Below are positions 42,161-63,495 of a stretch of DNA of 64,000 nt, piece after piece. This DNA is from a virus. The position numbers and the translations under genes were made by a program. Numbering within the stretch: the first letter of the stretch is position 1; each line of letters starts with the position of its first letter. The notes under the pieces are model-generated. The model had not been told where the DNA came from and did not search any database. It was given only the letters and a program-made list of their open reading frames with translations. The stretch lies in UHGV virus genome UHGV-0010228, one strand, 5' to 3'.

Positions 42161-42228
42161 GTAATTTCTTTTTTTTTTATTAGTATATTATTAAAGTGAA
42201 TAAATACAACTCATATAGTATATAATAT
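42161..42228 (+). promoter_or_regulatory. repeated promoter/leader block, copy 1 (second copy at 43565-43630)
   Basis: gtaatttc-T(n)-ATTAGTATATTATTAAAGTGAATAAATACAACTCATATAGTATA nearly identical in both copies, each followed by AAGGAGG and an ORF starting MRNIE. Confidence 0.5.
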
Positions 42229-42242
42229 AAGGAGGTAATACT

Positions 42243-48213: not shown

Positions 48214-48267
48214 TTTTTTTTTTGTTATACATTATATTAATATTATATAATATAAGGAGGTATTATA
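48214..48267 (+). promoter_or_regulatory. conserved leader/promoter block of the MFDLYNTLESYNI family (copies also at 54269-54326 +, 50291-50350 -, 56033-56087 -)
   Basis: T-run then TATACATTATATTAATATTATATAATATAAGGAGGTATTATA immediately before ATG; four near-identical copies. Confidence 0.5.
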
Positions 48268-50293: not shown

Positions 50294-50349
50294 TATAATA
50301 CCTCCTTATATTATATATAATATTAATATAATGTATAATAAAAAAAAAA

Positions 50350-56032: not shown

Positions 56033-56087
56033 ATATAATACCTCCTTATATTATATATAATATTAATATAATGTATAATAAAAAAAC

Positions 56088-59778: not shown

Positions 59779-60495
59779 ATGGGTTTAGTTAATGATTTTC
59801 TCTTTACTTACGCATTAGAAGCTGATGATATTACAGGAGAAGCTCAGGCTGGTGCTAGACAAATTGCCGGTGGACCAAATCCTGCCGGTGGACCAGGTGC
59901 TAATGCAAATGTTGGAGATGAACCAGATGACATATCTAAAACAGATGATATATTTGGTACTGCAGGATCAGATGATGATCCAATAAATGGAAATACTAAT
60001 AATGCTCAGAATTTAAATCAGAATCCACAAAATAATATGAATAATAATGATCCATTTGGTAATGATTCTAATAATATGGGAAATAATGATCCCAATGATG
60101 GTGGATTTGGTGATACAAATAATTCTTCGATGGATGATGGATTTGGAGAAAATAATGAGCAGGATAAATCCGATCCTCCATATTATGATAAGAATAAGTT
60201 AAAAAATAATATGCTGTATTTATACAATTTAACAAATTCATCAAATGATGCTATTGTAGAATTAAGATCAAAATTGAACGATCCTAGTAGTATCAAAGTA
60301 TGTAATATGGTAAATTCTAATTTAACTGCTCTTAGCGATTGTATATATGAAACAATTACTGATAAAATAGCTAATGCTACATATCAAGATATGCTTAGAG
60401 AGTATATATCATTTAAACGTATATATGACCTATGTACGGAAATAATGAATAAACATTTTGATAATGCGATTAAAGATAAGAAAAAGAAAAAATAA
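59779..60495 (+). CDS. low-complexity Asn/Gly/Asp-rich (disordered) protein with MGLVNDF leader
   Basis: 238 aa, AAAGGAGAAAA RBS; MGLVNDFLFTYALEADDITGEA...; NNMNNNDPFGNDSNNMGNNDPNDGGFG. Confidence 0.5.
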   Translation: MGLVNDFLFTYALEADDITGEAQAGARQIAGGPNPAGGPGANANVGDEPDDISKTDDIFGTAGSDDDPINGNTNNAQNLNQNPQNNMNNNDPFGNDSNNMGNNDPNDGGFGDTNNSSMDDGFGENNEQDKSDPPYYDKNKLKNNMLYLYNLTNSSNDAIVELRSKLNDPSSIKVCNMVNSNLTALSDCIYETITDKIANATYQDMLREYISFKRIYDLCTEIMNKHFDNAIKDKKKKK

Positions 60496-60535: not shown

Positions 60536-60600
60536 CTATTAACAATAAAATAAAATTATTTAGCAAATTAATAGTTAAAAATAAAAGGAGGAAACTCTCA

Positions 60601-62358
60601 ATGTTAGATAAGACAATTTATAATGACGTTGTAGGTAATGCTCAGTATGCAGATTCAGATGCTGGGTTTAAGTCAGAAGTTAGATCAATCTTCGAAGCAT
60701 ATGCTAATGAAGGTGTTAACCTGACTGACAATATCGGATCTGTAATTTCAGATGCACATCTTAGAGAAGACTTCATAGGTTCTATCTGCGAATCACTCGC
60801 AGCTTCACCTCTCTTCACTAATGCTGATGCTGCAAATGCACCTTTCTATAACAACTATGGTGCAAGAGTTGAGCAGTTACTTAGCAACACACTTAAGTCT
60901 GTAGCTGCAGAATCTGTAATGTATGGTTATGCTCCTATCGTTGCATACAACCCATTCTTCCTCAAGAAGCAGTGGATCGATTGTATCTTCAAGGATGTCC
61001 TCATGACAGAAATTCCTAAGACTCCAGTTATCAATCTCGGTTTCGAGAGAAGATATCTTAAGGATCTTGATGGTGAAAGATATCCACTTCCAGAAGCTCT
61101 CTATGATGATGAAATCGTAAAGAAGCTCATGGATGCATCAACTGGTCTTAACCTTACAGAAGAAGCAATTGATATTAATGATTGTAAGCAGCTTTATCTT
61201 ATAGATCAGAAGTATATCCCAGGCGTTAATGTAAATGATAAGTCAGTAGAAATCACTCCAAATATTTGTGTTTGGAAGGTTATGCTTGCTGGTGCAGATG
61301 GCGAAATCGAACTTCCGGTAAACATGACAGTTGATGTTACTACTCATAACTTCATTAATACTTCAATCAAGTTTGATGTAAAGGATGAAACTACTGGTGA
61401 AGTTAAGGAAACAATTGAAGATCAGCTCGTTGGTCATATGAACTTCAGAGATGCTAAGCTCACTCTTATGTCAACAACTGGTAAGGTTACAAAGGTATTC
61501 CTTAGAGGTAAAATTGCAAATAGATGGAACCAGAGATCACTGGATGTAGAAAGAACTGTAGAACACATTCAGAAGACAATGCCAGAATCTGGTCCAAGAC
61601 TGAACTCTTCAATCACTGTTGAAGATGCTGCAGATGCACTTGCTCTTCAGAATATTGACCAGATCTCAGATAACATCAATATCATGGGTGCTACTCTGGC
61701 TAACCTGGAAGATGCTGAAATTAATATGTTCCTTAAGAACTCATTTGAAGCTCAGAAGAAGGTTGCTGAAACAGGCGTTCTTTACAATGAACTTGGTGAT
61801 AATGTAATGATCGCTGAAGGTAACTTCAATACTCTTCCATATGAAACATTCAATGGTAGAATTTCTGAATGGCAGAAGGATGCAAGAGAATACTTCGAAA
61901 GAATGCTCTCTGCTCTTAAGATTAAGCTCCGTTCTCAGAATATGCTCTTCGTTGCAGTTTCACATCCAAATACTGTTAGATATCTCCAGGATGGTATCAA
62001 CTGGGTATTCTCAGATGACACTCAGATCGGCGGTGTAAGACTTAACTATAACTTTGGTATTTACACAACTGCACAGGATAGAGTTCATATCGTAACAACT
62101 CAGAGAATGGCTGAATCTGAAGGTATTAGATTCATTGGTATCCCTCTGACTCAGGAACTCATCACATTCAAGCACTATAAGTACAATGTAATTATTGATA
62201 GAGGATACAGAAACCCTCTGACTCCTCTCACTCCAAATATTATGGCTACTCAGAGAACTCTCACATTTGAAATATTCCCAGTTCAGGGTGTAATGACAAT
62301 TGAGGGTAGAGAACTCTTCTCACCTGATAGCCTTAAGAGAAAGACTGTTACGCCCTAA
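60601..62358 (+). CDS. major capsid protein candidate (T4 gp23-like), with predicted N-terminal propeptide
   Basis: AAAAGGAGGAAA RBS; elevated GC3/codon bias typical of a highly expressed gene; KYNVIIDRGYRNPLTPLTP ~ T4 gp23 KYRVYIDQYA...ALTPL and VMYGYAPIVAYNPFFL ~ gp23 VMGMVRRAIPNLIAF; AYANE|GVN fits protease site. Confidence 0.6.
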   Translation: MLDKTIYNDVVGNAQYADSDAGFKSEVRSIFEAYANEGVNLTDNIGSVISDAHLREDFIGSICESLAASPLFTNADAANAPFYNNYGARVEQLLSNTLKSVAAESVMYGYAPIVAYNPFFLKKQWIDCIFKDVLMTEIPKTPVINLGFERRYLKDLDGERYPLPEALYDDEIVKKLMDASTGLNLTEEAIDINDCKQLYLIDQKYIPGVNVNDKSVEITPNICVWKVMLAGADGEIELPVNMTVDVTTHNFINTSIKFDVKDETTGEVKETIEDQLVGHMNFRDAKLTLMSTTGKVTKVFLRGKIANRWNQRSLDVERTVEHIQKTMPESGPRLNSSITVEDAADALALQNIDQISDNINIMGATLANLEDAEINMFLKNSFEAQKKVAETGVLYNELGDNVMIAEGNFNTLPYETFNGRISEWQKDAREYFERMLSALKIKLRSQNMLFVAVSHPNTVRYLQDGINWVFSDDTQIGGVRLNYNFGIYTTAQDRVHIVTTQRMAESEGIRFIGIPLTQELITFKHYKYNVIIDRGYRNPLTPLTPNIMATQRTLTFEIFPVQGVMTIEGRELFSPDSLKRKTVTP

Positions 62359-62359
62359 C
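62353..62359 (+). promoter_or_regulatory. candidate programmed +1 ribosomal frameshift site CCC_UAA_C
   Basis: last sense codon CCC (Pro) followed by UAA; +1 frame reads CCU AAC and is open for 364 codons beginning with a Pro/Thr linker. Confidence 0.5.
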
Positions 62360-63448
62360 CCGCCAGTAGACCCAGATCCAACGCCAAGCAACCCAGATAC
62401 TTCTGCAATGGTTGATGGTACAGAATACGGTACTGTACAGGAGGCGTTAGATGCAGTGGAAGCTGGCAAACCAGTAACCGTAAAGCTCTTCAAGGATACT
62501 GAAACTCCAGTTACAGTAAAGAAGGGTACAAATGTAACACTTGATCTCAATGATACTCTTATGACTGGTACTACAGATGCTGCTATTACAGTAGAAGATG
62601 GTGCCGAATTAACAATTAAGGGTACAGGTATAATTGATGCTGGTACAGCACCTAAGAAAGCGGCAATTGTAAACAAGGGTACAATGTCTATTCTCGGTGG
62701 TACAATTACTAGATCAGAAGAAACTGGTACTGCTTCAAACGTATCAGGAAAGAATAGCTACTATGCTATATATAATACAGGTACTATCAAAGAAATTGGT
62801 AAGGATGCCGTAATCACAAATACTTCAGGTTATTCTTCACTCATTTGCTGTATAGGTACAGCAGATAAGCCTGCTAGAATTGATAAGATTACTGGCGGTA
62901 GATTTACTAATAACTTCGTAGTACTTAAGATGGATGATTATTCATCTCTCGGAGAAATTAGTGGCGGTACATTCATTAATAACCAGGATGACTTTAATAA
63001 GGGTCCATCTGCTACAATCTTAGCATATGGTCCAATTGATAAGATCAGTGGTGGTACATTTGAATGTAAGGCTGAAACACCTGTAAAGGTATTTGGTTAC
63101 TATGACACATCTGCAAAGGTTTGTCAGACAGGTGTAATTAAGGAAATAACTGGTGGTACATTCAAGACTGGTCTCATGGAAACATGTGGATCATTATCTG
63201 CATCAGTACATCCGGTTAGCATTAATGATATTGATAAGTTTACAGACTTACCATCTGTTAAATCAATTACTGGTGGTACATTCATTGGTAATGTATTTAC
63301 AGAAAACGGTGGTGTTATTGAAGGTATTGCTGGAGGTTCATTCACTCTTAGAGATGCTGAGTCTGAAAAGGCTATGGAAGCATTCTTAAAGGACGGATGT
63401 AAACTTTCAGGTGGTAACGACAATAAGTGGACTGTTGCTCTCGGATAA
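62354..63448 (+). CDS. +1-frame C-terminal extension of the capsid protein: Pro/Thr-rich linker plus GGTF-repeat (beta-helix-like) domain
   Basis: frame +1 relative to 60601 ORF; no ATG/RBS of its own (track start is TTG inside upstream gene); begins NPPVDPDPTPSNPDTS; six repeats of [IS]-[TSA]-GG-[TRS]-F (KITGGRF, EISGGTF, KISGGTF, EITGGTF, SITGGTF, GIAGGSF). Confidence 0.5.
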   Translation, partial: PNPPVDPDPTPSNPDTSAMVDGTEYGTVQEALDAVEAGKPVTVKLFKDTETPVTVKKGTNVTLDLNDTLMTGTTDAAITVEDGAELTIKGTGIIDAGTAPKKAAIVNKGTMSILGGTITRSEETGTASNVSGKNSYYAIYNTGTIKEIGKDAVITNTSGYSSLICCIGTADKPARIDKITGGRFTNNFVVLKMDDYSSLGEISGGTFINNQDDFNKGPSATILAYGPIDKISGGTFECKAETPVKVFGYYDTSAKVCQTGVIKEITGGTFKTGLMETCGSLSASVHPVSINDIDKFTDLPSVKSITGGTFIGNVFTENGGVIEGIAGGSFTLRDAESEKAMEAFLKDGCKLSGGNDNKWTVALG

Positions 63449-63457
63449 ATAAAAAAT

Positions 63458-63495
63458 AAAGATAGAATGAGGAAATCCTCATTCTATCTTTTTAT
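63458..63495. terminator. bidirectional terminator
   Basis: aaagatagaatgaggaaatcctcattctatcttt flanked by A-run and T-run. Confidence 0.7.

Follow-up and report, generated by a model that had tools for sequence, protein, structure and literature searches.

In a 64,000-nt stretch of the virus genome UHGV-0010228 (the window), the gene for the major capsid protein (MCP) ends in a rare proline codon directly followed by a UAA stop codon, and a long open reading frame (ORF) continues beyond it in the +1 frame. We propose, with a probability of roughly 60%, that tRNA-Pro in the ribosomal P site slips by +1 at CCC_UAA and that an MCP-beta-helix fusion is made in this way, a reading drawn from the DNA, its relatives and predicted structure. 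The features on which the proposal turns are the following.

60601 to 62358, + strand: MCP gene in the zero frame, 585 aa, 66.0 kDa
62353 to 62359, + strand: proposed shift site CCC_TAA_C, where the P-site tRNA-Pro would move from CCC to CCU, with AAC as the next codon
62357 to 62407, + strand: linker NPPVDPDPTPSNPDTSA, 17 residues of Pro/Thr/Asp, low-complexity, +1 frame
62408 to 63448, + strand: predicted right-handed parallel beta-helix domain with GGTF-type rung motifs, 346 aa (coordinates include the stop codon)

A rare proline codon directly precedes the stop codon of the capsid gene

The 585-aa product is related across its whole body to HK97-fold MCPs of jumbo phages (AR9/PBS1-like, phrog_20655). 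It matched phrog_20655 'major head protein' at E=4.6e-39 and the AR9 and PBS1 MCPs at E=8e-26, with 22-25% identity over more than 80% of its length to the MCPs of the jumbo phages AR9, PBS1, vB_BpuM-BpSp and Staphylococcus phage S6. In the PDB, it matched 7x30, 'Major structural protein ORF12' (E=3.9e-23), an entry that contains 27 chains of the ORF12 sequence. More than 500 closer relatives of ~580-640 aa, with 63-73% identity, lie on metagenomic contigs of 210-290 kb. Judged by its sequence, the source is a large phage, jumbo myovirus-like and distantly related to AR9 and PBS1.

The 3′ end of the MCP gene reads ACT GTT ACG CCC TAA C, with CCC at 62353-62355 and TAA at 62356-62358. Past the slip, the +1 frame (CCT AAC CCG ...) is open for 363 codons up to its stop at 63446-63448, the -1 frame closes within 4 codons and the zero frame past TAA within 18. 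An earlier, sequence-only reading of this DNA had described a capsid ORF ending CCC TAA C with a long open +1 frame behind it, and both its coordinates and its description were borne out. CCC is the rarest proline codon in the 54 ORFs of the window (15 of 567, 2.6%), and the MCP gene uses it for just one of its 22 prolines, the last codon before the stop. Full re-pairing upon a +1 slip requires CCC-U, as present at this position. The hexamer CCCTAA occurs 8 times in the window against 18.7 times expected from dinucleotide shuffles (100 of 100 shuffles had at least 8), and frame arithmetic by hand on the 8 sites showed that only the MCP copy lies in frame at a gene end. An open downstream frame by itself is little proof. 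The weight lies in other features that are unlikely together, namely the terminal rare CCC, an in-frame CCC_TAA that is unique in the window and the GC-rich 49 nt past the stop described below.

The +1 frame past the stop is coding and under purifying selection

The same 585-aa MCP, CCC_TAA and +1 ORF were found, with no indel, in four independent assemblies from different sequencing runs: the window, L001 (ERR2144984), L002 (SRR19415678) and L003 (SRR19415660). In the +1 frame, the part encoded past the slip (the extension) had a dN/dS of 0.057 against L001 and 0.176 against L002 at a dS of ~0.24, and the two other frames of the same region gave ratios above 1.9. At this divergence no stop or indel interrupts the 363 codons. 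The extension frame is real coding sequence under purifying selection. Its GC content of 38.2% is close to the 38.6% of the MCP gene in an AT-rich window of ~29%, and its codon adaptation index (CAI) relative to the MCP gene is 0.648, the highest of the 54 ORFs (median 0.409), so that the elevated GC and codon bias which the sequence-only reading had seen in both parts were found again. Such a rank is hard to square with a gene that has no ribosome-binding site of any kind.

These data also bear on whether the broken frame is an artefact, with an indel disrupting what is really an in-frame fusion, or a decaying and unexpressed remnant. A one-base difference would indeed yield an in-frame fusion, and relatives carry in-frame C-terminal domains. 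Because four independent assemblies agree on the frame relationship, however, the arrangement is not an assembly error, and strong purifying selection together with the highest codon adaptation of all ORFs argues against a dead gene. We consider an explanation of this kind barely credible.

The sequence between the MCP stop and the folded domain has a coding character of its own. The 49 nt past the stop (62359-62407) have a GC content of 57%, a value reached by merely 0.06% of all 49-nt windows; the 37 intergenic regions of the window have a mean GC of 22%, and their 49-nt windows a mean of 25% and a maximum of 49%. When scored with MCP codon usage, the linker gave a log-likelihood of +1.9 to +2.9 in the +1 frame and of -24 and -32 in the other two. 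The +1 score lies above 97.5% of intergenic windows and 99.3% of off-frame windows. In an AlphaFold2 (AF2) model of the extension, the first 10-residue block had a mean predicted local distance difference test score (pLDDT) of 68 and later blocks of at least 95, and DSSP assigned no secondary structure to residues 1-16. By its composition and codon usage, the stretch past the MCP stop thus looks like a translated linker.

The extension is predicted to fold as a beta-helix related to bacterial cell-surface proteins

The sequence-only reading had proposed a Pro/Thr linker followed by a domain of GGTF-type repeats, and this description was upheld: NPPVDPDPTPSNPDTSA is followed in the +1 frame by seven GG[TSR][FI] motifs (ILGGTI, ITGGRF, ISGGTF twice, ITGGTF twice and IAGGSF). 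The AF2 model of the extension (mean pLDDT 85, predicted template-modelling score 0.87) is almost all-beta, with repeated short strands, and the model and Foldseek searches agree on the stacked three-strand rungs of a right-handed beta-helix. Foldseek matches in the PDB were weak (E of 3e-3 or worse, template-modelling scores 0.3-0.5), and the top ones were all beta-helix proteins: PL6 alginate/chondroitin lyases, CBA120 TSP2 and pectin methylesterases. A good viral structure match was A0A8S5PP02 in BFVD (E=1.3e-13). Sequence searches of Pfam and PHROG gave no family match for the extension.

Sequence homologs of the extension, at 30-38% identity, are bacterial cell-surface proteins with a signal peptide. 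They carry at least one copy of the module together with a membrane anchor, SLH or other wall-binding domains, and several are thousands of residues long. Unlike them, the extension domain has neither a signal peptide nor a virion-attachment N-terminus. The mature domain of the bacterial homologs opens with an 'x-G-x-x-Y-x-T-L-Q-x-A' cap, whose phage counterpart begins at MVDGTEYGTVQEAL and is modelled at pLDDT 96-97. This shared cap places the start of the folded domain at ~62408, so that everything between the MCP stop and this point is linker. Ser/Thr/Pro/Gly-rich stretches also precede the domain in the bacterial homologs.

A further homolog was found on an unrelated 250-kb viral contig (L101:2869-3891), with 36% identity over residues 23-170. 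It is a stand-alone 340-aa gene product with its own 45-aa N-terminal region, and it adjoins a 630-aa low-complexity, repeat-rich protein that we take as fibre-like; the same module is thus apparently used elsewhere as a tail-associated protein. None of the 17 IMG/VR loci with homologs of the extension adjoins an MCP gene.

Alternative starts for the extension lack initiation signals

We next consider whether the extension could be initiated independently of the MCP. The start codons and the Shine-Dalgarno (SD) sequence relevant here are the following.

60585 to 60591, + strand: SD AAGGAGG of the MCP gene, 9 nt 5′ of its ATG, a typical strong SD of the window
62300 to 62302, + strand: TTG in the +1 frame, the gene-caller start of a 382-aa ORF that overlaps the MCP gene by 59 nt; judged unlikely to be a true start
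62408 to 62410, + strand: ATG at the start of the folded domain, a rival start that aligns with the first mature-domain residues of the bacterial homologs

An SD core match of at least 6 nt was found for 38 of the 54 ORFs, typically AAGGAGG 4-10 nt from the ATG, and several ORFs with a weak SD have an SD-led ATG a few codons 3′ of the longest-ORF start. Two start candidates, TTG 62300 and ATG 62408, lie 5′ of the conserved cap, neither with an SD: TTG 62300 has just GGGTG nearby, 9 nt upstream, and the 22 nt upstream of ATG 62408 (aagcaacccagatacttctgca) contain none. The sequence-only reading had held that the +1 frame lacks both a start codon and a ribosome-binding site. Start codons do exist, and the part that stands is that no SD-led start lies upstream of the cap.

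Initiation at TTG 62300 would give a separate overlapping gene of 382 aa that shares the last 59 nt of the MCP gene. This is the longest ORF, gene callers have accordingly annotated 382-aa proteins (P0001, P0002), and the GGGTG could serve as a weak signal. It is not an acceptable SD, however, and both TTG 'starts' in the longest-ORF list have poor SDs, one of them with an SD-led ATG 6 codons downstream, so that they look mis-assigned. The homologs have nothing that corresponds to MRVENSSHLIALRERLLRP, the peptide that the 19 codons of the overlap would specify. Furthermore, the single substitution in the overlap, 62346 T>G, is synonymous in the MCP and changes Leu to Arg in the +1 frame. Past the stop, 62359 C>T in L002 and L003 is synonymous in the +1 frame (AAC to AAT, both Asn). 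The two junction substitutions, two data points, behave as expected under the frameshift reading, and we rate a start at TTG 62300 as very improbable.

The main rival is a separate gene that starts at ATG 62408, either independently of an SD or by re-initiation, and makes a free 346-aa beta-helix protein. For re-initiation, 70S ribosomes ending at the heavily translated MCP stop, 50 nt upstream, would scan and restart. On this view, the Pro/Thr-rich 'linker' would be left over from the bacterial donor gene and go untranslated. Its GC-rich composition could then be inherited, since the bacterial homologs have Ser/Thr/Pro/Gly-rich stretches there. Homologs in other phages are stand-alone genes, such as the one in L101, and in the sister clade described below a large downstream beta-helix protein has its own SD and ATG; that no frameshift stimulator was detected also suits this rival. 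Against it, ATG 62408 has no SD although SDs are near-universal in this genome, the extension shows the highest codon adaptation of the 54 ORFs, and the spacer is coding-like in the +1 frame only. The free product would have no anchoring or targeting region, and an independent start leaves unexplained why the sole CCC of the MCP gene adjoins the stop. On balance, we regard a separate gene from ATG 62408 as unlikely, though a serious competitor.

A perfect AGGAGG lies inside the domain, within 62439-62458, where it encodes the conserved Q-E-A of the cap. It is followed by an out-of-frame ATG at 62451 (an 8-codon ORF) and by an in-frame GTG at 62456 with 11 nt spacing. GTG 62456 was rejected as a start, as its use would remove the conserved, confidently modelled N-terminal cap lying upstream. 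The AGGAGG might make ribosomes pause, as an SD-like element within the gene, or support a minor start there, never the main one.

The capsid gene and the extension form one predicted transcription unit

63458 to 63491, both strands: bidirectional intrinsic terminator closing the MCP-extension unit, a 15-bp stem followed by a T-run

No terminator was found between the MCP gene and the extension, and judged from these signals the two are one transcription unit. In those relatives without an extension whose sequence past the MCP stop was read by eye, with no tool scan, an inverted repeat or hairpin with a T-run was seen close by. Two other routes into the extension were rejected: read-through of TAA, as the zero frame shuts after 18 codons, and transcriptional slippage, as the site has no homopolymer run. 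A tRNA scan of the window, which might have revealed a phage frameshift-suppressor tRNA-Pro, found no tRNA.

Capsid relatives carry C-terminal extensions, including a putative mirror-image site

Distant MCPs carry an in-frame Ig-like domain of the CHB_HEX_C_1/Fn3_assoc type at their C-terminus (L018:5376-5876, L021:5375-5875 and L034:5402-5932; E down to 1.6e-19), and others (L010, L011 and P0332, ~50% identity) have an unrelated in-frame C-terminal domain of 140-150 aa. These in-frame domains mark the MCP C-terminus as a recurrent site for decoration domains. Many relatives also carry tails rich in P/T/G/S.

In a sister clade of three contigs (L083, L089 and L084), whose MCPs are 64-66% identical to that of the window, the MCP gene ends AAC_CCT_TAA or ACC_CCT_TAA and is followed by an open frame in the -1 direction.

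L083:5752-5934, L089:3774-3956 and L084:5791-5997: -1-frame extension ORFs of 58-64 codons

This is the only open frame after C_CCT_TAA in the three contigs, and in L083 it is free of ATG, GTG and TTG. A Ser/Thr/Gly linker comes first, then a segment resembling a beta-helix cap, and the comparison of L083 with L089 gave a dN/dS of 0.36. In L089, the -1 frame is closed two codons 5′ of the MCP stop, so that a shift could take place only at AAC_CCT_TAA. Throughout the clade CCT is preceded by C, and tRNA-Pro can thus re-pair on CCC after a -1 slip. In both clades, the bases at the terminal proline codon agree with the frame in which the downstream ORF lies: CCC-T in the window suits a +1 slip and C-CCT in the sister clade a -1 slip. 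The sister clade appears to use a putative mirror-image -1 slip. Where no downstream frame follows, the MCP genes of relatives mostly have CCG or CCA as their last codon, preceded by a base other than C. An exact-pattern scan of IMG/VR for the -1 site found none, and none of the 79 IMG/VR MCP loci has a long +1 ORF after the MCP gene.

The -1 extensions end ...NF[DK]QEV*, and CAGGAGGT also serves as the SD of the next gene, which encodes 245-306 aa and starts 1-3 codons further on in the same frame as the extension. The -1 extension could dock or couple with this downstream protein.

A C-terminal proline is common in the family, being present in 78 of the 192 MCP homologs inspected (P0121-P0312), often after low-complexity Pro/Thr/Gly/Ser tails of up to ~40 aa. 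Many of the relatives that end in proline (among loci L005, L008, L009, L012, L090, L091, L092 and L110) lack an open frame past the stop, near which a terminator-like hairpin lies, and an MCP ending in Pro was for this reason rejected as a family-wide marker of recoding. A +1-competent site followed by just 5-8 open codons is present in L005 (CCC_TGA), L091 and L110 (both CCC_TAA). Sites of this type may be relics of lost extensions, or the C-terminal proline may have been kept for another reason. Two candidates for an MCP-beta-helix fusion were rejected: P0320, a supposed junction-spanning fusion, is a bacterial surface protein, and P0332 is an MCP with the unrelated in-frame 140-aa domain.

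The slot between the MCP gene and the Phage_H_T_join_2 gene is highly variable (L083-L090, L110; 63449-64000 in the window). It contains an HNH endonuclease in L085, phrog_5043-type proteins on either strand in L087 and L088, a large terminase subunit in L090 and beta-helix genes in L083 and L084. The slot 3′ of the MCP gene resembles a hotspot for recombination or mobile elements, and this may account for the arrival of a bacterial beta-helix module at the MCP.

Neighbouring genes and other signals in the window

Directly 5′ of the MCP gene lies a 238-aa ORF (59779-60495) that is Asn/Asp/Gly-rich and of low complexity in its N-terminal two-thirds. No 49-nt window in the region is richer in GC than one within this ORF, around 59842, and the ORF has no significant Pfam match and no PHROG match. 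Its position suggests a possible role as a scaffold or in the prohead core. Directly 5′ of the start codon of at least three genes stands an identical 22-nt cassette, TATAATATAAGGAGGTATTATA; its copies in the window are at 48246-48267 (+), 50294-50315 (-), 56034-56055 (-) and, with 3 mismatches, 42221-42242 (+). These four matches compare with 0.02 expected, and the cassette may combine promoter and SD in a conserved module shared by genes of one temporal class. TGA is the stop codon in 1 of the 54 ORFs.

A proposed +1 slip at the capsid stop codon

Termination mediated by release factors is slowed by a C-terminal proline, and tRNA-Pro on CCC is intrinsically prone to +1 slippage. Slow termination at proline combined with a slippery CCC would favour a slip without further stimulators. 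In the frameshift reading, ribosomes would arrive at ACG_CCC_UAA with peptidyl-tRNA-Pro on the rare CCC and the stop codon in the A site. During the slow termination after the C-terminal proline, a fraction of them would re-pair tRNA-Pro one base downstream, on CCU, and read AAC CCG CCA ... on through 363 codons. One mRNA would thus give two proteins, the 585-aa (66 kDa) MCP as the major product and a 948-aa fusion as the minor one. The fusion would consist of the MCP, the 17-aa Pro/Thr/Asp linker and the 346-aa beta-helix, with a mass of 103.7 kDa before any prohead processing. Its junction is predicted as ...K/TVTP-NPPVDPDPTPSNPDTSAMVDGTEYG..., within a tryptic junction peptide, TVTPNPPVDPDPTPSNPDTSAMVDGTEYGTVQEALDAVEAGKPVTVK, of ~47 residues. 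The fusion would presumably co-assemble into the capsid lattice at low stoichiometry, where the beta-helix may be exposed on the outside of the capsid, either to bind glycans as an adhesin or to degrade polysaccharides. What was observed is the anatomy of the site, a +1 frame under selection, a missing SD, the modelled fold and the family context; what we infer from this is that ribosomes slip and how often, that the fusion enters virions and what the beta-helix does.

Several results weigh against this proposal. No stimulator was detected in the region of the shift: the minimum free energy fold of 62340-62460 was not better than that of shuffled sequences (z=-0.55; pseudoknots were not searched explicitly), an Rfam search at E<=1 gave no match there, and inspection upstream of the site revealed no convincing SD-like stimulator. 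The stop codon itself, UAA, normally terminates efficiently. ATG 62408 coincides with the domain boundary set by the bacterial homologs, and a free start there would give a complete domain too. Conservation of the linker among the strains is indistinguishable from that of true intergenic DNA, which is equally ~96% identical, and is therefore uninformative as a coding test. The base after TAA is C in two assemblies and T in two (L002, L003), so that a C at the +4 position is not conserved. As many relatives end in proline plus stop with no downstream ORF, the terminal proline alone is not diagnostic.

The comparative record adds to these points. L001-L003 are very close relatives (92-99% identity between the strains, 92-97% at the amino-acid level), the arrangement is confined to this shallow clade and the extension is absent from every more distant relative found in the homolog searches; as only very close relatives have it, no deep comparative test is available. 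An in-frame MCP-beta-helix fusion was found neither among 5.8 billion proteins (word-indexed search with a junction-spanning query) nor among 1.84 billion representatives (exhaustive phmmer). The size of the appendage counts as well. Known frameshift-derived capsid extensions are roughly 50-90 aa or Ig-like, and to our knowledge the 363 aa proposed here, a 38-kDa appendage on the MCP lattice, far exceed any that has been reported.

Taken together, the programmed +1 fusion first suggested by the sequence-only reading gains from the terminal CCC, the selected frame, the linker, the single transcription unit and the extensions of relatives, and loses from the missing stimulator, the usually efficient UAA and the ATG at the domain boundary.

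Comparison with known frameshift systems

The closest precedent is the +1 shift at (AAA)CCC_UGA in the tail-shaft gene tsh of Listeria phages PSA, A118 and A500, which is proven (Atkins et al. 2016, PMC5009743). There, CCC makes up 5% of the proline codons of Listeria, sites of this stop-adjacent type require no downstream structure, and an incidental CCC_UGA in E. coli pheL gives 15% shifting (PMC5009743). The window resembles tsh in having a rare P-site CCC directly before a stop (62350-62359), from which tRNA-Pro can re-pair on CCU/CCN in the +1 frame, in an AT-rich host or phage that rarely uses CCC (2.6% of proline codons here), and in an open, selected +1 frame without initiation signals of its own. 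As with tsh, long and short forms of a major virion protein are predicted from one gene. Unlike tsh, the window has UAA rather than UGA, a capsid rather than a tail-shaft gene, a jumbo-phage setting and a predicted 363-aa beta-helix extension.

The sequence-only reading had likened the site to CCC-UGA shifting in both capsid and tail genes of A118 and PSA. The +1 analogy holds, and the citation was partly misattributed because CCC_UGA is the tail-gene site: the capsid gene cps of A118 uses a -1 shift and that of PSA a +1 shift at ACA_CCC_(UCC) with a pseudoknot (PMC5009743). Shifts by -1 occur in the capsid genes of A118, A500, T3, T7 and Lactobacillus phage A2 (PMC5009743). As in cps of PSA, A118 and A500, 10A/10B of T7 and T3, and A2, a frameshift would extend the MCP at its C-terminus and give two capsid species in a set ratio. 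Their sites, in contrast, are internal, slippery, accompanied by RNA structures and mostly -1, whereas the site in the window is stop-adjacent and the fold and Rfam searches detected no structure.

Accessory Ig-like domains are attached to phage structural proteins in frame, by +1 or by -1, apparently by chance (Fraser et al. 2006, summarised in PMC5009743). The extension would likewise be a mobile accessory surface domain at the C-terminus of a virion protein, in an MCP family with in-frame, +1 and -1 arrangements. Its cargo differs, being not Ig-like but a pectate-lyase-type right-handed beta-helix from a bacterial cell-surface family. By predicted fold class it joins CBA120 TSP2, PL6 lyases, pectin methylesterase, PfbA and UpaB; unlike beta-helix tailspikes, it would be attached, if at all, to the capsid and not to the tail, and the structural matches are weak. 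A stop-adjacent tRNA-Pro +1 shift that yields a long phage structural protein is thus known, and the beta-helix cargo, the jumbo-phage setting and the UAA stop would be new.

Implications for capsid evolution and display

More tentatively, and with odds well short of even, the MCP stop in gut jumbo phages of ~240-290 kb may be a reusable recoding hotspot. A slip of the Pro-tRNA by +1 (CCC_UAA) or by -1 (C_CCU_UAA, in L083/L089/L084) would attach exchangeable beta-helix modules of bacterial origin to some of the many capsid subunits. In that case, the 363-aa extension would be the largest frameshift-borne capsid appendage that we know to have been described, perhaps with a glycan-binding or depolymerase function displayed on the capsid. 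With its +1 and -1 members, the family would offer a natural system for studying how one or two bases next to a proline codon decide which way a P-site tRNA slips.

If the proposed fusion is real, annotation pipelines wrongly split the locus into two genes and overlook a virion protein of 104 kDa, as happens in the public gene calls of the three sister contigs (L001-L003). Stop-adjacent tRNA-Pro +1 shifting would then be known beyond the small siphophages of Listeria, in uncultivated jumbo phages and at UAA stops. Capsids, besides tails, would display large beta-helix modules like those of bacterial surface adhesins or glycan-active enzymes, and such display would bear on how these phages adhere to mucus or host surfaces.

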